Below, one piece after another: positions 5,593 to 17,506 of a DNA stretch of 64,000 nt (within the stretch, counting starts at the first letter, position 1; each line of letters starts with the position of its first letter). The translations under genes were made by a program, and so were the position numbers. Source of the stretch: Waddliaceae bacterium (GTDB taxonomy: Bacteria > Chlamydiota > Chlamydiia > Chlamydiales > SLFE01); assembly GCA_963783885.1 (NCBI GenBank), contig CAWAPJ010000010.1, forward strand, positions 1 to 64,000, read 5' to 3'. Below the pieces are notes generated by a model. The model worked only from the letters and a program-made list of their open reading frames with translations. It was not told where the DNA came from and did no database searches.

Positions 5593-5665
5593 GCCGATCT
5601 GAAGTTTATTTTATTATGAATTCTAAAATTTTCCTGCGCGAATTTTTGATGTCATTTAAATAGAA

Positions 5666-5813
5666 GTAAGTGTTCGGTGATATACGTGCCCGGAGAACAC
5701 AGCTAAGGGAGAAGGACTGCAAGGCGCCCGATACAGGAAACCCCTCCATGGGTTGTCGAAGCAGACCAAAGCCCCCGCAATTTATCCGGGCACGTAGACT
5801 GCCGAATGCTTAC
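5666..5813 (-). mobile_element. MITE family A copy (GTAA-ended palindromic element)
   Basis: About 30-bp imperfect TIR GTAAGTGTTCGGTGATATACGTGCCCGG / CCGGGCACGTAGACTGCCGAATGCTTAC; reverse-complement homologue of 27907-28066. Confidence 0.85.
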
Positions 5814-5885
5814 AAATATTTTTGGTAATCACGCGGCACGTATCAGACCATTTTGGATAATTGTTATAATTAAAGGAGATTTACT

Positions 5886-6275
5886 TTGATAATCAGCAAT
5901 CAAAAAAATATGCAAATTTTGAACGAAGACACCTCAGAGAATGCAACCCACACAAATGAGGCTAGCCCCCTTAAAAAACCCAGCAACCCAGCTGCTTCGG
6001 TTTTTAGCCTGATTCAAAAGGTAATGGAGTCCAAAATATCGGTTTTAATCCATGCAGGTAATCATTTAATAAACTATTATGAACATGACAAGACCAGATC
6101 CTATCAGGTTGTAGCCAATAAAGTTTCAGCTTCGAATAACTGCGGTCTATATTCTCATGCCCTCCATTCAATATTTCTCAAAGATGCTAGAAGTAAGTCT
6201 GAAAACTGTTATGAACATGGTTCATTTATTAATGAAGGTGTTTCTCTTTTTGCTAAGACCCTGATTGCTACCTAA
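5886..6275 (+). pseudogene. 5' part of a hypothetical gene apparently interrupted by IS982
   Basis: AAGGAG RBS before TTG; ORF stops immediately where the IS-associated sequence begins; a candidate C-terminal remnant lies at about 7192-7329. Confidence 0.5.
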
Positions 6276-6277
6276 AC

Positions 6278-6394
6278 TTGTTGTTAAAGTCTTTCGTTGG
6301 ATTCAGATGCGTAGACTCGATTTGAAGGCAAGGGTAATCCCTTGCCGATAATCGAGGCTTAGCAGATGAATTCAATGAAAGATTTTAACGACAA
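6278..6394. repeat. Palindromic element D / structured leader upstream of the IS982 transposase
   Basis: Arms TTGTTGTTAAAGTCTTTCGTTGGATTCA / TGAATTCAATGAAAGATTTTAACGACAA with apical hairpin GGCAAGGG-TAAT-CCCTTGCC. Confidence 0.7.
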
Positions 6395-6435
6395 TAGTCT
6401 CTATGATACTTCCTTAGCAAAAAAAAGGGGGCATC

Positions 6436-7329
6436 ATGGAAACTTACGCAACAACAGTTTATGTCATCAGCGAAGAAATCCTTCGAATTTTGGGGATTAA
6501 AGACGATCCTCAATCTCAAATGTCCAACGCAGAAGTGATAACTTTTGCTATTTTATCAGCAAAATATTTTTCTTGTAACTATAAAATGTCCAGATATTTA
6601 TGTAAAAGATTACGATTATTCAGAGCTATTTTAAGCAATAGCCGGCTAAATCGCCGAATTCATAAAATTCCTTGGATTTGTTGGAACGCCATTTTTCGTT
6701 TTTTAGCTCTATTTTTTAAGCAAATAAATAAAGATCAGGGTTTTGCTATAGACAGCTTTCCAGTTTCATGTTGTCAGAAAAATAGAATCGATAAACGGAA
6801 GGTTTTTCTAGAACGAAGGTATTTAGGTTTCGCAGCTTCTAAAAAGCGTTACTTTTGCGGCATAAAAGTTCATATGATTGTGACGAGTGAAGGCAAGCCG
6901 GTTGAAGTTCTTTTCAAGCCAGGAGCAGTAAGCGATGTAAAGGTGCTCTGGGAAATGAAACTGGACATTCCACCAGATTCTAAACTTTATGCAGATGGTG
7001 CGTATAATTGCTTTGATTTAGAAGACATCTTGAAAGAAGAACAAATTACATTGCTTGCAAAACGGGGATGTAAAGCAAAGAATAGAGTCCGAACACCAAT
7101 TGAAGAGAGGGAAATTAGCAGCAAGCGACAGATTGTCGAGACGACATTTAGCTGCATAACAAACCTTTTCCCCAGAACTTTTAAGTTCAGATTACACTAC
7201 CCTTTATTTTTAAAAGATGGGCTTTATCTCTCAAAATTTGGTGTTTCAGGCCCTTTGAGTATCACAACATTAGGTGCAATGAAGATATTGTTTAATGGCG
7301 TCATCGTTGGAAAAGTGCATTTCTGTTAA
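6436..7329 (+). mobile_element. IS982-family transposase, C-terminally truncated and fused to unrelated sequence after about 7185
   Basis: MSNAEVIT, IDSFPV, YFCGIKVH, YADGAY and KRQIVETTFS (DDE) motifs; the tail after FPRT does not resemble an IS982 C-terminus. Confidence 0.85.
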
Positions 7330-7334
7330 AAAGG

Positions 7335-7660
7335 GTAAACATTTGGTGATCTACGTCCCTAGTGTCTATTCCATTAAATTAGCGATTTATTTACGCCATC
7401 TTTTCCCGCATCTCACAAAGACTGGAATCGAGTCTACATCCAATGTATGTCCCGATTCCAGTCTTTGCAATCTGCGGCAAAATCTGACATAACTAATATC
7501 GCAAATTTAATGGAATAGACACTAGATAACTTGCGGGGGCTTCCGGTCTGCTGCGTTGCCCTGCTTCGGCAACCCCATGGAGGGGTTGCCTGCTATCTGT
7601 CGCCTTGCATACCGTCGCCTGCGCTTCGTTCTCTAAAGACGCAGATCACCGAATGTTTAC
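7335..7660 (+). mobile_element. MITE family A copy with 8-bp TSD, interrupted by nested MITE C
   Basis: Ends GTAAACATTTGGTGATCTACGTC / GACGCAGATCACCGAATGTTTAC; TAAAAAGG duplicated at 7327-7334 and 7661-7668. Confidence 0.88.
7359..7525. mobile_element. MITE family C inserted at a CTAG site
   Basis: Perfect 22-bp inverted repeat CTAGTGTCTATTCCATTAAATT; internal stem CAAAGACTGGAATCG / CGATTCCAGTCTTTG. Confidence 0.88.
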
Positions 7661-7733
7661 TAAAAAGGTGACATGCAGTTTGACATTTCGGCCTTTAAAT
7701 TATGCAAAAGCAATAAAAGCGATTTCATAAACC

Positions 7734-8441
7734 CTACTGCTTCTCCTCATTCTGCTTGATGACTTTTTTTGCGGGCTCGACTTTGCCGGTAGGGTTGGCG
7801 AGTTTGATTCCGGTAAAGCCAAGGAAGGCAAGAGACATCAGGCCCGACATGACAAACGTGATTCCCATGCCCTTTAAATTGAAAATGACGTTGGAGGTGC
7901 GGAGCCTTTCGCGGATCGAGGCGATGAGAGCGATTGCCAGCCACCAACCGAGCCCCGAGGCAAAAACATAGACGACATTGGGAATGAAGGGGTACTCTCT
8001 TGTGACGGCAAAGAGGCACGCGCCCAAAATAGCGCAATTGACAGTAATCAAGGGAAGGTAGATTCCCAAGGACATATAGAGGGCGGGAGCGAACTTTTCA
8101 ATAACGATTTCAAGGACCTGGACAAAACCGGCAATAACGGAAATAAAAATCAGGAATTGAAGAAAGTTGAGATTGATGCCGGAGGCGTCGAGGCCAAGAT
8201 AGCCGAGCCAGGCGAGGGCATTGGGGCCGGTGATGAAAGCATTGACCAGCCAGTTGAGCGTTCCGGCAACGGTCAGTACAAAGACGACGGCTACTCCGAG
8301 ACCGTTTGCGGTTTTTAATTTCGCCGAACAGGCGAGGTAGGTGCACATGCCCAGAAAGTTGGCGAGGATAAAGTTCTCAATAAAGACTGCCTGAACAAGC
8401 AGGCCAAGTAAATTAAGCGGCTCGTAAGGACCCATTAACAT
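7734..8441 (-). CDS. nqrE: Na(+)-translocating NADH:quinone reductase subunit E
   Basis: FLGMCTYLACS and GIYLPLITVNCAILG motifs; operon position; start 8441 or 8435. Confidence 0.95.
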   Translation of the reverse strand: MLMGPYEPLNLLGLLVQAVFIENFILANFLGMCTYLACSAKLKTANGLGVAVVFVLTVAGTLNWLVNAFITGPNALAWLGYLGLDASGINLNFLQFLIFISVIAGFVQVLEIVIEKFAPALYMSLGIYLPLITVNCAILGACLFAVTREYPFIPNVVYVFASGLGWWLAIALIASIRERLRTSNVIFNLKGMGITFVMSGLMSLAFLGFTGIKLANPTGKVEPAKKVIKQNEEKQ

Positions 8442-8445
8442 GAGA

Positions 8446-9081
8446 TCATTCCTCCTTTTCAACAGTTGCGTTAGAGATCCATATCAGCCCGCCGATAATG
8501 AAAAATGCCGCCGGCGGGCTCACCATAAGTCCAAAATTCTCGTAGGCGTTCGGCTGGGCCGCGGAGGCATACCAGCTCTCGGGGACAACCTGGATATTAA
8601 AGAGTTGCCCGAATCCAAAAAATTCTCGGATGGCCCCGACGATCAGCAAGACCATAGCATACCCGAGGCCGGCGCCCATGCCGTCGAGGAAGGCAGGCCA
8701 AGGGGTGACGTTTTTGGCCATCCCTTCTGCTCTTCCCATAACCAGGCAGTTGGTGATGATCAGGCCGACAAAAACGGTCATTACTTTCCAGATCGCATAG
8801 TAATAGGCTTGCAAAAACTGGTCGATGATAATGACGAAAACGGAAATGATCGCAAGCTGAGTGATCATCCTGACACTCGGAGGAGTGTAATGTCTGAGAA
8901 GGGAGACGAAGAAACAAGAACACGCAGTAACAAATGTAACTGAGAGCCCCATAGTCAGAGCGACGGATAGCCTGTTTGTGATGGCAAGGGCCGAACAGAT
9001 GCCTAAAACAGCCACAAGGATTTGGTTGCTGCTCCAAATTTGATCCGTCAAGTAGTGGAAATTTCCTTTCTGCGCCATCAT
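8446..9081 (-). CDS. nqrD: Na(+)-NQR subunit D
   Basis: [10 protein letters not shown] and [17 protein letters not shown]. Confidence 0.95.
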
Positions 9082-9986
9082 TTCCCCTCGTTTTTTTGAG
9101 ATTCTTGATGAAGTTTAATAAAAAACGGACGGTAGGGAGCGAGGGAATCGTGATAGGCTTTTGTGACTCCCACTCCAGTCAACGTGGCTCCCGGTATGCC
9201 GTCGACTGCAGTTTTGGCTTTGGGTTTGTCTCCAATAACGTTTTTAACTTCTCCTTTGACAACCGTAAGGCCTAAGGGAGCGGTTTTAAAATCCGTTTTT
9301 CCATCGGGACTGGGGAGAAATATGTCCTTGCCGTGGAACTGAGCCTGCCACTTGGGCTCGGAAATGACAGCACCCAGTCCGGGGGTTTCTTTTTGCTCAT
9401 ACCAGGTGGTGCCGATCACGGTGTCGCCGTTTGCGTCAATGGCCAAAAAGCCATAGATAGCATCCCAAAGTCCGTAGCCGTTAACCGGAATGACATAGCC
9501 GATCGGTTTTTCGTTTTTCTCTTTTTCCCCTGAAGGGTTGGGAAGAATTTCGTAGACCAGCATTAGCGGAAGAGTGTAATAACCCCGCTTTCTGTTGCTG
9601 TTGATATAGTCCCTTTCCTTTATGTCTGCTTTTTTGAATGTCACGAGGTTGCCTTTATGGTCGACAAGCATCGAACGAATGCGTTTTTGATAAACCTCAA
9701 AAAGCTGGTCTTTATCGGGATATTGTCCATTTTTCGAAGGAACGAGCCTGCCTTCTTTTTCAAGTTTGGCGGGGACATATTGATTACCTTTCTTAATTTG
9801 AAAGGATCCTGATGGATTCACAATTCTCGCTGCGATCATCATTTGTCTGCTTCTGTCGAGTTCCTGGGCAATTTCCTGAGGTTTTCTCAGTGCGCTGGCG
9901 AGAATAGCGAGGATAAGGGCGCAGACAAAGCTTAGGATGACGATAAAGATGATAACGCGGGTATTGCTTGGGGGGGTAACCGTCAT
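9078..9986 (-). CDS. nqrC: Na(+)-NQR subunit C
   Basis: [16 protein letters not shown] and FMN-attachment motif [10 protein letters not shown]. Confidence 0.95.
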
Positions 9987-10040
9987 TTCTCATACCTCCC
10001 CGTTTGCACAACTTTCACAAGTAGGTGTGAGAAATGCGCG
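9980..10040 (-). mobile_element. Internally deleted MITE family E remnant containing the present nqrC RBS and ATG
   Basis: TTGCACAACTTTCACAAGTAGGTGTGAGAAATGCGCG-TTAA matches the terminal arm of element 31323-31484; the other end is GTAA-CCGTCATTTCTCATACC. Confidence 0.8.
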
Positions 10041-11570
10041 TTAAGCGGCTGCTTTGGCACGGCGGCGTTTCCTCCTATAGTTAAGGACAACGTAATAATC
10101 AATCAGCGAGGCAAAAACATTGCCCGTTAGTATTGCAAGCATGACCCCTTCGGGAAATGCCGGATTAATATAGCGAATGACGATAGTGATGATGCCGATA
10201 AGGATTCCATAAACCCACCTTGAAACAGGTCTGTCGGGGGATGAAACCGGATCTGTTGCCATGTAGACAAGGCCGAAAGCAAGACCTCCCAAAATAAGCA
10301 TTTTGTAGGCGGGGAAGCCGAATTGCGCGGCTGTCCAAGCTCCTCCGTCGGGTGCGAGAAACGCCGATCCCCACTCGAACAGACTGGCCGTGCCGAAGGC
10401 GCCGATGGCATAAGCGGCCATCGTTCTCCAGGATCCGATCCCGAAGAAAATGATCAGAAGGGCGCCGATAATGCAGGCAAGAGTGCTGGTTTCTCCCATG
10501 GATCCCAATTTATTTCCTAAAAAGAAAAGCCAGTTTCCATTTGTTTCACCGAGGCCGTATTGAAGGGCGGAGAAATGATAGGCGTCGTAATAATCTCCGA
10601 CGGAAAGTCCCAGACCTCCCTCACTGGCCGGAGAGGTGACGAACGACTGCATCTGGTCCGATGTCAATTGTCCCAATTTCGCCTCGCTTCCTTTGCTCCA
10701 TTTCGAGAAGTATTCCTTGATCAAATCGAAATGGCGGACATTGTCTCCAAGATTGTTTGTCGCAATTGCGTCGACGTGGATCTGCTTGATTTCGGGAGAG
10801 ACATTGAATTGGTTCAATTTGCTTGCCTGAGTATAGCCATCAATAGCCGGGCGTCCCGATTCGGCATTCATTTTGACGAGGCTTTCTCTGACGACAACGG
10901 GATTTCTTCCTACCCAAACTTCCCCGGACATCCTTGTCGGATAGGCAAAGAAGAGAAACGCGCGGCAGCAGAGGGCCGGATTCATAATATTCATACCCGT
11001 TCCTCCAAACAATTCCTTGCTTAGGACAACACCGACAACGACTCCGACAGCAACCATCCAGAGAGGAATTGTGGGGGGAAGAACAAGGGGGAACAGCATC
11101 CCGGTAACCAAAAATCCTTCCGCTACATCGTGGCCGCGGACAACGGCAAAGATCATTTCTGCAACGCCTCCAAAAAGATACGAGACTAAAACGACAGGCA
11201 GGAAGGCGAGGCACCCTTCTTTTAAAATGGTCATCCATCTGTTATCTTTAGCGGCAAAGGCAAAATAGTCGCTTAGCGAATCAAGCGAGGTCAGGTAATC
11301 ATCCATAAGGCTGTAGTTCCCGCTGGAATAGACATAGCTTTGGAGTCCCGTATTCCAAATAGCCATGATGATTGCCGGCACCATTGCAAAGACAACGAGC
11401 AGCATCCACCGTTTTAAATCTGTAGCGTCGCGAATATGAGGCGCGGTTTTTGTATTTTCCGGCGCTTCATAGAGGAATGTGTCGAGGGCGGAAAATGCGG
11501 GACGGAGCTTTTTGAAAACTTTATTCTTTTCCGTAAGAGACATCTGGTAGTCAAGTATCTTTCTAAGCAT
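10041..11570 (-). CDS. nqrB: Na(+)-NQR subunit B
   Basis: PHIRDATDLKRWM, EGFLVTG, KELFGGTGMN, GSMGETS, YMATDPVS. Confidence 0.96.
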   Translation of the reverse strand: MLRKILDYQMSLTEKNKVFKKLRPAFSALDTFLYEAPENTKTAPHIRDATDLKRWMLLVVFAMVPAIIMAIWNTGLQSYVYSSGNYSLMDDYLTSLDSLSDYFAFAAKDNRWMTILKEGCLAFLPVVLVSYLFGGVAEMIFAVVRGHDVAEGFLVTGMLFPLVLPPTIPLWMVAVGVVVGVVLSKELFGGTGMNIMNPALCCRAFLFFAYPTRMSGEVWVGRNPVVVRESLVKMNAESGRPAIDGYTQASKLNQFNVSPEIKQIHVDAIATNNLGDNVRHFDLIKEYFSKWSKGSEAKLGQLTSDQMQSFVTSPASEGGLGLSVGDYYDAYHFSALQYGLGETNGNWLFFLGNKLGSMGETSTLACIIGALLIIFFGIGSWRTMAAYAIGAFGTASLFEWGSAFLAPDGGAWTAAQFGFPAYKMLILGGLAFGLVYMATDPVSSPDRPVSRWVYGILIGIITIVIRYINPAFPEGVMLAILTGNVFASLIDYYVVLNYRRKRRRAKAAA

Positions 11571-11660: not shown

Positions 11661-14600
11661 ATGAAACGACGCAATCTCTTTTTTTTCATTATTTTACCCT
11701 TTTTGCTTTTAGGTTTGGTCGCGGCTTTCTGGAAAAGTCTGCAGCTGACTTTCGTTCATTGGACGCTCAGCGAGTATTGCGAAAAGAATTTCGGTTACCG
11801 AATGAGCTTTGAAAGAATGGCTTTTCTCGAGCAGGATATCATTTTGATCGAGGGGATTACTTTAAGGCCGGCCGACCCCGAGTCCCTCTGCTGGGGAACT
11901 TTGACATGCCCTGCGGCTTACGTGAAAGCCAATCTTGATTTAAGTTCTAAAACCTTTTACAGTCAAATACATCTGCAAAATTTCGAACTAAATCTGGACG
12001 ATGAACCGATTCGCCCGGCCCGGAGCTTGAGCCTGCCTTCGGGTAACCGGGGGTTTATTATCAACCCTTCCATCTCATTATCGGGAGAGGGGGCCGTTCG
12101 GTTTGACGGCCGGCTGAGCGGATGCATACTCGACACTGTGCTTGCAGATGATATCTCCGGAATGGTTCAGCTTGATGAGCTGTCCATCGATATCTGCAGG
12201 TCCAAGGGATCGAAAGAGCTAGTATTTAGGGGAAAAGATCTCAATGCCGCCAATATTGCGGGTTTGGGAAAAGCAGTTGTGCCCGATTGGTTTCCCTGGG
12301 AAGTCAGGCGGGGAAGCCTTTCAGGGGCTTTGGTCTTAAGAAACGGGGTCGTGTATGGCGCTTTGGAGACGGAAAACGTACAGCTTAGCATCGATTCCTT
12401 GTATCTGACGTTTCCTTCCGCGCATATGGACATCGACCAGGGAAGGGGGTATATCGCCTTTGATTCCGCTCTTATAGAAAATTCCAGCAATAGGATTACC
12501 GATATAAACGGAACCGTCGAATTCGACGGGACGGAGTGGAGTTTGAAAAGCGAAGGAAATTTCCGCGGAATGAAAGCATGGGCCGATCTCAAATCTTCGG
12601 GATTGGATTTTTATGAGGGGTCGCTTGTTAAGTTGGAATCGGAACGAACTCGCGGAACTTTGTATCTTTCAGGACAAAAAGGAAGGGTGGAATATTCAGG
12701 CAGCAGCAGTATTTTCGGGCTGCCGATCGAGCCCGGGGAATTGCTTGTTCGGGCGGAATTGACGAATGTCTGCGGAGATCTTGCCCTCTCGGAGATTGTG
12801 TTTGAGGGAAAAACCGAGGATTTTGCCTTCAATGGAGATGACTGGACATTTGAGCTTTCTTCATCCTCTTCATTTGTTATCAGAATGGACGACAATCGAG
12901 AATGTATCGATTTTTCCGGCAGCTTTAGCAAGGGAAAGTTTATTTATATGCCTGCAAATTTTATTTTAGATGATATCGCCTCGTCTTTTCAGGGAACCGA
13001 CAGGCAAATTTCATTTGAAAATATCCGGGCTTCTTGCGGCGATGTCGCCCTTGGCGGCGATGTGTCGATGACCTTAAAACCTTTCTTCGACATTGAGATC
13101 TATCAGCACACGCTGCAGGGAAAAATTTCCGATGTTCAGCAGATATTCGGAAAATTCGGAATCGATTCCTCTCTATTTTTACTTCCGGTTGCAGGAGACC
13201 TTACCTACCAGGATGAGGGGGCTTTTTTTAAATGGAGCGAGTCGGATCGGGTATTTTCCGGAACTGTTGGGGCAACTCTGCAAAGCGGAACTCTTGAGTT
13301 TGCCGATTATGACTTTTCGCTGCATGACCTGACTCTGAACTTTGTGTATGATATTGCTTCGGATTTTTTGGATATTCGCGGAGGGACAGGCAGTTTTCGG
13401 TTGGGTGAAAACAATGATCTTGGTTTTGTTGTCGATCACATCGTTTGTTCGGAACTTTCCAAAGGGGTCTGTAATTTTGATTTTTGGTGCGGGGATAAAA
13501 AAAGGGACAGAATTCGGGTTTGCGGAAAAAGTATCAGAAAAGGGAGAGAGCTTTCGGTTCAATTCGATGAGGAGGCGACTCATTTCGGAACTCTCTATCC
13601 CGACAAGATGTCAATTTCCATTGACGAGGCGGGATCCTTAAAGGGTTGGGATTTGGATTTGAATTTTTCGTGGCAGGAGTCTAAAAACGAATTGCTGCAA
13701 CTGCTTGGCACTTCCTTATTTCCATTTCATCATAACCTTCATTTACTGCTTTTCCGCACAGACATCATGGAAGGGGATTTCGGGGTAAACATCTGCTATG
13801 ATAAAAATCTGGAAACATTGGATTTCAGCATTTTAGGAAAAGAGCTCCTGTTTGGGGATTGGGCTGTCAACCAATTCAAATTTCAGGGATGCTGCTGCCG
13901 CGATCAGTGGAGAATTCACAAATGTGAATTTGACAATCTATCCATTGCTGCTGATTTGGCTTTGGATAAAGATTGCTATCGTGTCAGTTTTTTGGGATGC
14001 CGTTTGGGAAACATCTCTTTGCTGGGTATGGACGGAAAATTTTTTCCGAAAAAAAATCTGGTGGAAGCGAATGTCAATCTTGTAGATATCAATCTTGCCG
14101 AACTTCACAATATTAAACCTTTAAAAGCATTCGCCAATAAGTTTCAACCCCGGGGGGAGGCACGGGCGAATTCCGGAAAACTCATTATACAGATTGCGGA
14201 AAACGACTGGTCAATGGATTTATCTTTTATCGCGTCTCTGAAAAATTTTTCCCTGCAGGGGATCCCTTTTCGAGATACTGAAACTATGGAAGTTGCATTT
14301 CAAACGGATAAAAAGCTCACTATAAAAAACCTACGGCCTTCTGCCGGCAATGAAAAAGATTCCTTTTTCCTCGAGTTAGAGAAAGCTGTTTTTGACCTCA
14401 GCTATAACAAGATTGATATCAAGGGGTTGCATTTCTGCTCTCCTGCCTCGAAATCGGAATGGATTGTGGGTTTTTTAAGGAACTCATTTCCCGGGGCCGT
14501 CAATGCTTCGCTTGCGGGCTTCTTAGATGAAATTAAGGCTGGAAATTCTTTTGATGGAGTTTTGGACTTTAAGTTAAATCCTGTTTCCAGTTTTTTATCC

Positions 14601-15590
14601 GTTCATCTGAAGGACGGAGTCTACCAGTTTTTAGGTAAAACTTATTGTCTAAAGGATTTTTGCTTTTGTAAAAGAGATCAGGAAATTGAAGTGATGGCTA
14701 AATGCTTCGCTCTCAATCAATGGTTTGAGCTTCAAACACGATTTTTAGGAAAAGCTTTTCCGCATGGGGTGCTTGAAGTGCGCAGTCCCGAAGTTTTTGA
14801 TTCTCCTCCATTAAACATTTTTTGGAGAAAGGGGGAGGCTTTGGAAATAGAAAGAGTCAATGGGACTCTTGCAGGCTGCCGCATCGACCTGGAACCTGCC
14901 CAAAACGGTTTGAAAGGGAGTGTCAAAAAGGACGGCTTTTCAGGAGAACTTGAAGCAACAGGCAGCCGGATTCTTTGCCGCAACGTCCAGGGGGAGATGA
15001 TGAGCGGCACTTTTTTTTGTCCTTATGCTGAAATTTGCGAGAACAATCGGATGTGGGAAATATCTATTCCGAAAATTTTCGCTCAAAGGCTGCATTTAGG
15101 TCTTCTACCCGGTTGGGAAGAATTTTTTGATCATTCATTGGTTGTCGATTCGTTGGAAATTTCCGATCTTCACGGGCCTCAGGATGATTTGAGACGATTT
15201 GAGTGCCGGGGCAAGGCTTCCTTTTCCAGCGACGAAAAACAAAAGAAAATGTTTCCTTTCGTTAAGGAGAAAATTAAAGGCATCTCAGCTTTGAGGCCCT
15301 CTTCAGGAGACATTGAATTTTATTTGGATTCAGGTAATCTAGTCTTGTCTGAGGTGCATAATATGATTGACGGAAGGCAGTTATTTCGTTACACGCTTCC
15401 TTCATATTATTCGAATCATATCAGCGCCGATGGGAGTGTGTTTTTGGTTTTTAACTTAGTTCCCCATAACTCAAAAGTAAGAGTGGAAGATTTTATTTCC
15501 GTTGTGATTGAAGGGACGGTTGACTGTCCTGTTTTTTCTCTGAAGAAGACAACCGAAATGCAGCAAGTCACTCAATATTTGTCCGAATAA
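11661..15590 (+). CDS. Large membrane-anchored beta-rich hypothetical protein (possibly AsmA/TamB-like)
   Basis: 1309-aa ORF with an N-terminal TM anchor followed by long amphipathic beta-strand patterns. Confidence 0.6.
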   Translation: MKRRNLFFFIILPFLLLGLVAAFWKSLQLTFVHWTLSEYCEKNFGYRMSFERMAFLEQDIILIEGITLRPADPESLCWGTLTCPAAYVKANLDLSSKTFYSQIHLQNFELNLDDEPIRPARSLSLPSGNRGFIINPSISLSGEGAVRFDGRLSGCILDTVLADDISGMVQLDELSIDICRSKGSKELVFRGKDLNAANIAGLGKAVVPDWFPWEVRRGSLSGALVLRNGVVYGALETENVQLSIDSLYLTFPSAHMDIDQGRGYIAFDSALIENSSNRITDINGTVEFDGTEWSLKSEGNFRGMKAWADLKSSGLDFYEGSLVKLESERTRGTLYLSGQKGRVEYSGSSSIFGLPIEPGELLVRAELTNVCGDLALSEIVFEGKTEDFAFNGDDWTFELSSSSSFVIRMDDNRECIDFSGSFSKGKFIYMPANFILDDIASSFQGTDRQISFENIRASCGDVALGGDVSMTLKPFFDIEIYQHTLQGKISDVQQIFGKFGIDSSLFLLPVAGDLTYQDEGAFFKWSESDRVFSGTVGATLQSGTLEFADYDFSLHDLTLNFVYDIASDFLDIRGGTGSFRLGENNDLGFVVDHIVCSELSKGVCNFDFWCGDKKRDRIRVCGKSIRKGRELSVQFDEEATHFGTLYPDKMSISIDEAGSLKGWDLDLNFSWQESKNELLQLLGTSLFPFHHNLHLLLFRTDIMEGDFGVNICYDKNLETLDFSILGKELLFGDWAVNQFKFQGCCCRDQWRIHKCEFDNLSIAADLALDKDCYRVSFLGCRLGNISLLGMDGKFFPKKNLVEANVNLVDINLAELHNIKPLKAFANKFQPRGEARANSGKLIIQIAENDWSMDLSFIASLKNFSLQGIPFRDTETMEVAFQTDKKLTIKNLRPSAGNEKDSFFLELEKAVFDLSYNKIDIKGLHFCSPASKSEWIVGFLRNSFPGAVNASLAGFLDEIKAGNSFDGVLDFKLNPVSSFLSVHLKDGVYQFLGKTYCLKDFCFCKRDQEIEVMAKCFALNQWFELQTRFLGKAFPHGVLEVRSPEVFDSPPLNIFWRKGEALEIERVNGTLAGCRIDLEPAQNGLKGSVKKDGFSGELEATGSRILCRNVQGEMMSGTFFCPYAEICENNRMWEISIPKIFAQRLHLGLLPGWEEFFDHSLVVDSLEISDLHGPQDDLRRFECRGKASFSSDEKQKKMFPFVKEKIKGISALRPSSGDIEFYLDSGNLVLSEVHNMIDGRQLFRYTLPSYYSNHISADGSVFLVFNLVPHNSKVRVEDFISVVIEGTVDCPVFSLKKTTEMQQVTQYLSE

Positions 15591-17293: not shown

Positions 17294-17341
17294 TCTACTG
17301 TGAGAGGCTCTCTGCAGCTCACTGTAGCACAAATGTTTTTA

Positions 17342-17506
17342 GAGGGAATTGCAAAAACTTTGGCAGACCGCTTTTTGGCTCTTGCACCGACCTTGGCCAT
17401 TTTGCTTAGAAGCCCCTACTCTCCAGAGTATGTGAATTTTAAGAAAATGGCCAGTTTCGGCAAAATAGCTCAAAAATTGGTTGTGCCGGAGTTTTGCAAT
17501 TCCCTC
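17342..17506. mobile_element. MITE family B copy
   Basis: TIR GAGGGAATTGCAAAA / TTTTGCAATTCCCTC flanked by TTTA on both sides; homologous to 27581-27743; abuts the dnaA stop. Confidence 0.87.

Follow-up and report, generated by a model that had tools for sequence, protein, structure and literature searches.

The stretch of DNA analysed here (the window, 64,000 nucleotides from a Waddliaceae bacterium) carries on its minus strand the operon nqrB, nqrC, nqrD and nqrE of a core respiratory enzyme. All four genes score above the curated NCBIfam cut-offs (TIGR01937, TIGR01938, TIGR01939 and NF002200/TIGR01940). The junctions further down the operon are tight: nqrC and nqrD have an ATGA in common, and only 4 nt separate the stop of nqrD from the likely ATG of nqrE. 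Between nqrB and nqrC lies a 61-nt spacer. Here we present evidence that this spacer is what remains of a transposable element of the miniature inverted-repeat type (MITE), a short non-coding element that landed in the first codons of nqrC and now appears to supply the gene with its Shine-Dalgarno (SD) sequence and start codon.

The junction can be compared with those of two relatives. A search of genome contigs with NqrC as the query returned two loci, L001 and L002, both in Waddliaceae metagenome-assembled genomes. L001 represents a sister species; its NqrC is 90% identical to that of the window, and the two contigs are collinear over 20 kb at 85-92% nucleotide identity. L002 is more distant, with an NqrC that is 56% identical. 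A full-length element lies elsewhere in the window, at 31323-31484, and serves as the reference below. These are the features of the nqrB-nqrC junction:

10041 to 11570, minus strand: nqrB coding sequence, 509 amino acids (list of open reading frames; NCBIfam TIGR01937, 503.6 bits, cutoff 349.9)
10071 to 10076, minus strand: AGGAGG, the ancestral SD of nqrC, within two Arg codons of the nqrB tail; identical in L001, AAGGAG at the homologous place in L002
10058 to 10060, minus strand: GTG, the ancestral nqrC start, now the start of an upstream open reading frame (uORF); the homologous position is ATG in L001 and GTG in L002, where it is the nqrC start
9983 to 10060, minus strand: the uORF, 25 codons plus TGA, seven old nqrC codons followed by the remnant (from translations)
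10041 to 10044, minus strand: TTAA, left copy of the target site; identical TTAA in L001 at 9843-9846
10043 to 10041, minus strand: TAA, the nqrB stop, inside TTAA 10044-10041
9980 to 10040, minus strand: spacer or element remnant, 61 nt, between the nqrB stop and TTAC
10004 to 10040, minus strand: left arm of the remnant, 37 nt (alignments to 31323-31359 and to L001)
9980 to 10003, minus strand: right arm of the remnant, 24 nt, holding the present nqrC SD and ATG (alignments to 31461-31484 and to the right end of the L001 copy)
9996 to 10000, minus strand: GGAGG, the present SD, 9 nt 5' of the ATG; aligns to GGGTG of the full-length element terminus and to AAGGT in L001
9984 to 9986, minus strand: ATG, the present nqrC start, element-derived; homologous ATG in the full-length element at 31478-31480 and in L001 at 10001-10003
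9976 to 9979, minus strand: TTAC (GTAA on the plus strand), right copy of the target site with one change, now within nqrC codons 3-4; the same TTAC in L001 at 10008-10011
9078 to 9986, minus strand: nqrC coding sequence, 302 amino acids (NCBIfam TIGR01938, 212.5 bits, cutoff 144)

Translation of nqrC starts no earlier than ATG 9986, because an in-frame TGA lies upstream at 9992-9990. The uORF stops at TGA 9985-9983, which overlaps this ATG (9986-9984) as ATGA. An earlier reading of the window, made from the letters alone (the original prediction), had described these features; checked against the sequence, the list of open reading frames and the translations, all its coordinates and peptides are correct on the minus strand, including the 25-codon peptide that opens at GTG 10060 and ends in the TGA overlapping the nqrC ATG. 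Across 299 codons compared with L001, nqrC is identical at 280 first, 287 second and 224 third positions, the pattern of a gene that is clearly functional and under purifying selection.

What is the spacer between these genes? The reference element, on the plus strand, lies within a fatty-acid desaturase gene:

31319 to 31488, plus strand: the full-length reference element (31323-31484; 162 nt) together with the TTAA that flanks it at either end (inverted arms; sequence)
31306 to 31308, plus strand: ATG, the old desaturase start, at present the start of a uORF of 59 codons whose stop is the TAA within the right TTAA (translation)
31478 to 32593, plus strand: desaturase coding sequence as now read from the element-borne ATG (Pfam FA_desaturase, 5.9e-33; list of open reading frames)

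In a local alignment the spacer matches this element at 37/42 positions. Its left arm agrees with 31323-31359 at 32 of 37 bases, a score that none of 2000 shuffles reaches (nhmmer E = 7.7e-08), and with the L001 copy at 30/37. Allowing up to three mismatches, the 32-mer of the left terminus occurs in the 64 kb only at 10004-10035 and in the element itself; none is expected from 100 shuffles. The original prediction held that the 61-nt spacer consists of the two termini of this element between TTAA and GTAA flanks, and would have given up the claim had a formal alignment shown no significant similarity. The alignments, the shuffles and the L001 copy bear the claim out.

At the same site, between the same TTAA and TTAC, L001 carries a full-length element of 161 nt (9847-10007). 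Aligned end to end with the reference element, the two are identical at 122/161 positions with one gap (blastn, 77% over 165). The spacer of the window aligns to both ends of the L001 copy, and the roughly 100 nt between them are absent from the window. On sequence grounds the L001 copy is the decisive evidence for an insertion and its later trimming. Both species carry the element at the same site, and the insertion therefore predates the split between them.

L002 shows the junction without a spacer. Its nqrC GTG, at 9965, lies inside the last nqrB codons, with AAGGAG upstream and the nqrB stop at 9988-9990. Overlapping nqrB and nqrC genes without the spacer are what the original prediction expected to find in relatives. 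It would have been contradicted by a spacer conserved in distant chlamydiae lacking this MITE; L002, the one distant genome tested, has none. The NqrB proteins of many chlamydiae end in a tail of RVR plus Ala or Thr, and many NqrC proteins start with MSEQQP-like residues. In L002 the NqrB tail and the NqrC head are the same DNA read in two overlapping frames, so the overlap of nqrB and nqrC appears to be widely conserved in the phylum.

Excision of the element in silico recovers such an overlap. When the remnant is deleted together with one flank copy (10040..9976, 65 nt, a precise excision), GTG 10060 falls in frame with nqrC. Deletion of 9980-10040 alone, the 61 nt that the original prediction proposed to remove, does not restore the frame; the N-terminus it foresaw is obtained once the flank copy is included. 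We measured the NqrC tail as the residues before the LS..C motif of the membrane helix, which is present in 119 of the best 120 homologues. The window tail has 17 residues, and 112 of the 119 homologues have a longer one (mode 21; 20-23 in 72/119). The excised gene would encode a tail of 20, a length in the range most frequent among the homologues. In seven homologues the tail is as short as that of the window or shorter: P0001, which is the L001 protein, four that start in or just before the helix and probably have miscalled starts, and P0011 and P0021, whose tails are genuinely short. P0001 begins MSIT and the window protein MTVT; P0100 begins MPKQ, the same four residues as the uORF.

At the other end of the junction, NqrB looks undisturbed. 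Counting residues after the DYY motif, found in 117 of 120 listed proteins including that of the window, its tail is 19 long (mode 20, range 16-24 among the 117). Since this length is normal, the TAA in the left TTAA is most simply the ancestral nqrB stop, and the target a TTAA that was already there. The right flank copy would then have changed to TTAC before the window and L001 species separated. The insertion left NqrB unchanged, its stop supplied by the left TTAA, and cost NqrC seven old residues in exchange for three or four new ones in a short, variable tail.

The element has the traits of a bacterial MITE. The reference copy has terminal inverted repeats (TIRs), arms of 68 nt (31318-31385 and 31422-31489) that are 78% complementary; it folds at -77.4 kcal/mol and the L001 copy, end to end, at -59.8 kcal/mol. 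The flanks indicate a target duplication, TTAA/TTAA at the desaturase and, in the window as in L001, TTAA/TTAC at nqr, although with only two sites compared a shorter duplication of 2 nt (TA) or 3 nt (TTA) is possible. The element is small, 161-162 nt, and encodes no transposase; its only long frame has 56 codons and no NCBIfam match. The nqr site is occupied in the window and L001 and empty in L002. We searched the three loci with an nhmmer profile built from two element sequences. The window (64 kb) holds two copies, L001 (20.9 kb) a single one and L002 (20.9 kb) none; no further match had E < 0.1. By its TIRs, target duplication, size, lack of transposase and presence or absence at orthologous sites, the element fits the structural definition of a bacterial MITE. 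No autonomous insertion sequence (IS) with the same termini was found within the window. One candidate partner, the DDE transposase open reading frame (ORF) at 6436-7329, was rejected: it has no terminal similarity, and the best nhmmer match there (E = 1.3) is to the interior of the model. An Rfam scan of the whole window at gathering thresholds returned three tRNAs only, none at either element.

The desaturase copy records a separate event. It interrupts codons 5-6 of the gene; from the old ATG at 31306, five codons lead to the TTAA, and the frame then crosses the entire element and ends at the TAA within the right TTAA. If 166 nt are excised virtually, the desaturase frame is restored, with a head whose length and pattern fit those of P0122 (82% identical). 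P0121, the orthologous protein of the L001 contig (91% identical), has an MK head of the old type. The N-termini of P0121 and P0122 thus fit an empty site, at the protein level only. This insertion appears to be the younger one and specific to the window lineage, in which case the family would have had at least two separate periods of activity. The codon phase of the TTAA is the same at the desaturase and at nqrC, and in both genes the new ATG lies in the right terminus. The shared phase is no coincidence of reading, because the terminal ATG falls in frame with the interrupted gene only where TTAA is read xTT AAx. The 10-nt stretches on the left side of both TTAA targets (10045-10054 and 31309-31318) have six bases in common (AAGC...C.C), which is why the repeat finder extended the match to 51 nt at 82%; the common bases could reflect target preference or chance.

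These comparisons yield the following history. Before the insertion, nqrC began within the last codons of nqrB, at a GTG some 20 nt from their end. An inverted-repeat, non-coding element of about 161 bp, of the family of 31323-31484, inserted at a TTAA that held the nqrB stop and fell in nqrC codons 6-7, severing nqrC from its old SD and start. The window lineage then lost about 100 nt from the middle of the element, leaving a left arm of 37 nt and a right arm of 24 nt. The sole start that now keeps the NqrC membrane helix is the ATG 8 nt from the end of the right arm, preceded by GGAGG in the same arm. Comparison of the three loci establishes, as far as sequence can, the insertion, the family to which it belongs, the ancestral GTG, an age older than the split from L001, the loss of about 100 nt and a start derived from the element.

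How would ribosomes reach this start? The two arms were predicted to be able to pair over the ribosome-binding site, and folding the RNA of the spacer returns this structure:

9984 to 10036, minus strand: predicted RNA hairpin of the two arms, 53 nt, with GGAGG and AUG in the stem (-19.4 kcal/mol; present in the minimum-free-energy and centroid structures)

In a 171-nt context of the window, the mean pairing probability of the SD is 0.75 and that of the AUG 0.56. For the AUG the value rises to 1.00 in L001 and 0.99 in the desaturase copy, and the L001 region folds far better than its shuffles (z = -3.9; 0/200 as good). In all three copies the uORF stays open to within one codon of the new AUG or beyond: its stop overlaps the start as ATGA in the window, precedes it in L001 as TGA, one codon, ATG, and in the desaturase copy is a TAA beginning eight nt after the A of the ATG. 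The start codon of the uORF is kept in both nqr species, as GTG in the window and ATG in L001. No promoter was found on the coding strand inside the nqr spacer or element; a promoter-like site at 31270-31299 lies outside the desaturase copy. Nor did a scan of the coding strand of the nqr spacer find a terminator, and the hairpin, having no T-run, is not an intrinsic one.

We infer a relay from these features. The old AGGAGG and start, kept in both species, would open a uORF through the element to the new ATG, whose SD and AUG would be buried by the paired arms. Ribosomes on the uORF, and perhaps ribosomes that have reached the nqrB stop, would open the hairpin and then start again at the AUG. 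The translational coupling of nqrB to nqrC would in this manner be kept by a relay through the element. Taken as a whole, from insertion and trimming to an element-borne start and a relay, we consider this explanation highly probable.

The original prediction described a domesticated insertion refined by deletion into a coupled start. Part of this stands: L001 and L002 support an old insertion, later trimmed, that provides the ribosome-binding site and start of nqrC. The refinement by deletion needs two qualifications. First, in the full-length copy of L001 the TGA of the uORF already stands a single codon ahead of the ATG, and the coupling geometry therefore does not stem from the deletion.

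Second, between the window and L001 the arms are identical at 48 of 61 positions; third codon positions at identical residues agree at 208/271 in nqrC and 390/480 in nqrB. The arms therefore seem to diverge at about the silent-site rate, and no selection or extra constraint on the remnant or its hairpin is measurable.

This divergence is one of several observations that weigh against our explanation. At the DNA level, the empty site is seen in one genome only, L002. The three copies amount to two independent insertions, and an exhaustive HMMER search of 1.84 billion representatives with a 72-aa ORF over the element returned only the window's own ORF. The right arm by itself resembles 31461-31484 weakly (17/24, a score reached by 25 of 2000 shuffles), the element terminus is matched just as well by an unrelated 24-mer at 10344, and nhmmer does not report the arm as a separate match. 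What secures the assignment of the arm is its place at the terminus, together with the full-length orthologous copy, whose right end it matches at 18/24 (0/2000 shuffles). The hairpin of the window, taken in its 120-nt context, has no significant advantage over shuffled sequence (z = -1.5; 12/200 as good). Since AGGAGG doubles as the Arg-Arg codons of NqrB, its retention is not in itself a demonstration that the uORF is used. GGAGG at 9 nt is a canonical arrangement that could initiate directly, without the uORF. Finally, a modelled ribosome parked on the nqrB stop frees the AUG of the window (0.56 to 0.01) and leaves its SD paired (0.80) through a downstream run of C; the same model does not free the AUG of L001. 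We regard this result as mixed and count it neither way. The run, seven Cs at 9970-9976 on the minus strand, lies in nqrC codons 4-6, immediately after the right-hand flank copy. When the hairpin is open in constrained folds, these Cs pair with GGGGAGG of the new SD, and they could act as a second, weaker occluder.

Several of these points are shared by the main rival to the relay, which accepts the same insertion history and has ribosomes initiate directly at the element-derived GGAGG and ATG, leaving the uORF an unused relic. Canonical spacing, a remnant evolving at the silent-site rate, an AGGAGG constrained in any case as NqrB codons and a hairpin unexceptional among its shuffles all speak for it. 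Yet direct initiation would have to use an SD and AUG held in a stem of -19.4 kcal/mol, and in L001 an AUG paired with probability 1.00 in a stem of -59.8 kcal/mol. A start codon persists at the old position in both species, and the uORF remains open to the new AUG in both despite a 100-nt deletion in one of them. The remaining operon is also coupled by overlaps. We lean away from direct initiation while granting it a real chance of being correct.

Could the old start still be the real one? Translation from GTG 10060 would have to pass through the remnant by recoding, with a frameshift in the window and read-through of the TGA in L001. The insertion and flank of L001, 165 nt together, do preserve the frame, broken by a single TGA one codon before the ATG, and some listed NqrC homologues have N-terminal tails of up to 55 residues. 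Against this, two different recoding events would be needed at the same gene in two species, and an ATG with an SD stands exactly where translation must restart. The long tails of the homologues may be start-codon miscalls, and no slippery-site or read-through signal was noticed, though none was searched for. We judge recoding very unlikely.

Even less probable is that the spacer is ancestral and that the overlap in L002 and other chlamydiae arose by its loss. A single empty site at the DNA level leaves room for this view. It is opposed by the longer NqrC head of 112/119 homologues across many lineages, by NqrB tails and NqrC heads that show the pattern of overlapping frames, and by a spacer that copies an element found elsewhere with target duplications. 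That the spacer is ordinary intergenic DNA, resembling an unrelated element at 31323 by chance or convergence, draws on the weakness of the right arm and has practically nothing left to recommend it beside the left arm, whose terminal 32-mer occurs nowhere else in the window, and the full-length copy at the same site in L001, which refutes it.

How does the preferred explanation, an inserted and trimmed MITE with an element-borne start reached by relay, compare with known systems? Bacterial MITEs such as the Correia elements of Neisseria and QMITE1/2 of Coxiella are described as affecting neighbouring genes (PMC10969869, PMC3184786). The element here resembles them in its size of about 160 bp, long TIRs, short target duplication, lack of transposase and presence or absence between close genomes. 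In the Coxiella study, the insertions lie at the 3' end in all affected functional annotated genes (PMC5896051). The present element differs in two ways: both independent insertions fall in the first codons of genes, and the gene appears to be rescued by an SD and ATG borne on the element.

In its mode of action the element seems closest to the REP2 repeats of Neisseria, which bring a ribosome-binding site and ATG to the downstream gene (PMC3184786); here too an ATG lies 8 nt from the end in 5/6 arms. REP2 repeats and the IR (inverted-repeat) sequences of Borrelia sit immediately upstream of genes, as does the element here. REP2 has a promoter and no TIRs, whereas our element has long TIRs and no promoter-like site found on the coding strand; and unlike REP2 or Borrelia IR sequences, it does not head a gene but took the place of a start that already existed within an operon.

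Rickettsia palindromic elements (RPEs) are palindromes of about 150 bp tolerated within protein genes of an obligate intracellular bacterium, with an open frame across them (PMC10969869). Our element is likewise palindromic, lies inside such genes and has an open frame across it. The likeness ends at translation: an RPE is read in frame and becomes part of the host protein, whereas in all three copies here a stop (TGA or TAA) falls before or at the new ATG. The element is not an in-frame coding insertion of the RPE type, and in the window the uORF also lies in a different frame from nqrC.

Translational coupling, in which an upstream frame melts a hairpin over the next start, is known from the coat and replicase genes of phage MS2 and from ATGA operon junctions. 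The arrangement modelled here is similar: a stop overlaps or abuts the next start, and a predicted stem sequesters the next SD and AUG. It would differ from classical coupling in that neither hairpin nor uORF evolved as a leader; a transposable element left both as by-products. Searches of open-access papers and bioRxiv turned up no account of MITEs in Waddliaceae and none of a MITE-borne start linked to translational coupling.

Other repeats surround the operon. Just 3' of nqrE, at 7335-7660 on the plus strand, lie nested palindromic elements of a different family from the nqr element. The outer one has 28-nt inverted ends (7335-7362 and 7633-7660) and is interrupted by an inner palindrome of 167 bp, bounded by CTAG, at 7359-7525. 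These elements and the DDE transposase ORF at 6436-7329 (Pfam DDE_Tnp_1_3) are part of extra DNA in the window, where 5618-7728 (about 2.1 kb) corresponds to 12250-12644 (about 0.4 kb) in L001; the extra DNA is probably a lineage-specific IS/MITE cluster. Another repeat family has copies in the window at 5643-5821, 7524-7633 and 27906-28089, and in L001 at 8136-8305. The L001 copy lies just upstream of nqrB, where the window is empty (11581 and 11570 are adjacent), an opposite case of presence and absence. About 175 bp of the window, 17333-17506, are missing from L001 at the orthologous point 2442-2449; they belong to a palindromic repeat family with a second copy at 27580-27747. Divergent from nqrB, at 11661-15590 on the plus strand, is a 1309-aa ORF with no Pfam match and about 85% nucleotide identity in L001.

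Might the element be more than a lucky intruder? Each of the three copies has two ends, and an outward ATG is present in five of these six arms, at a distance of 8 nt from the end; in the remaining one, the left arm at 31323, the triplet is ATA. Upstream of the terminal ATG runs GGGTG in the desaturase copy, AAGGT in L001 and GGAGG in the window, which resembles a series towards a canonical SD and, with three copies, is suggestive. The left arm is complementary, with a CACC-type sequence that pairs with the SD-like run. Both independent insertions (2/2) struck at the sixth codon, and the uORF is open in 3/3 copies. It is conceivable, if rather unlikely, that the family is built to survive landing in the first codons of genes. 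Each terminus might natively carry an outward SD-like run and ATG in phase with an xTT AAx target, a suggestion we make tentatively. Equally doubtful is the further step, in which one open frame spans the element and turns the old start into a uORF that melts the hairpin and delivers ribosomes to the ATG of the element.

If this is true, such an element could colonise the 5' ends of essential genes, even at overlapping operon junctions, without the death of the host. N-termini would be exchanged, and each gene would come to lie behind a structured switch that depends on translation. Start signals carried by design would constitute a new route by which MITEs are tolerated in genes, beside the in-frame coding insertions of Rickettsia.

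The nqr junction offers a clean, datable case of a mobile element that split an overlapping junction between two core respiratory enzyme subunits, with the gene apparently rescued by signals on the element itself. Three stages are preserved: the empty site in L002, the full-length insertion in L001 and the trimmed remnant in the window. In annotation, the spacer, the short NqrC head and the 25-codon uORF would otherwise pass as ordinary features. The case suggests that selfish DNA can replace gene starts and N-termini in reduced intracellular genomes.

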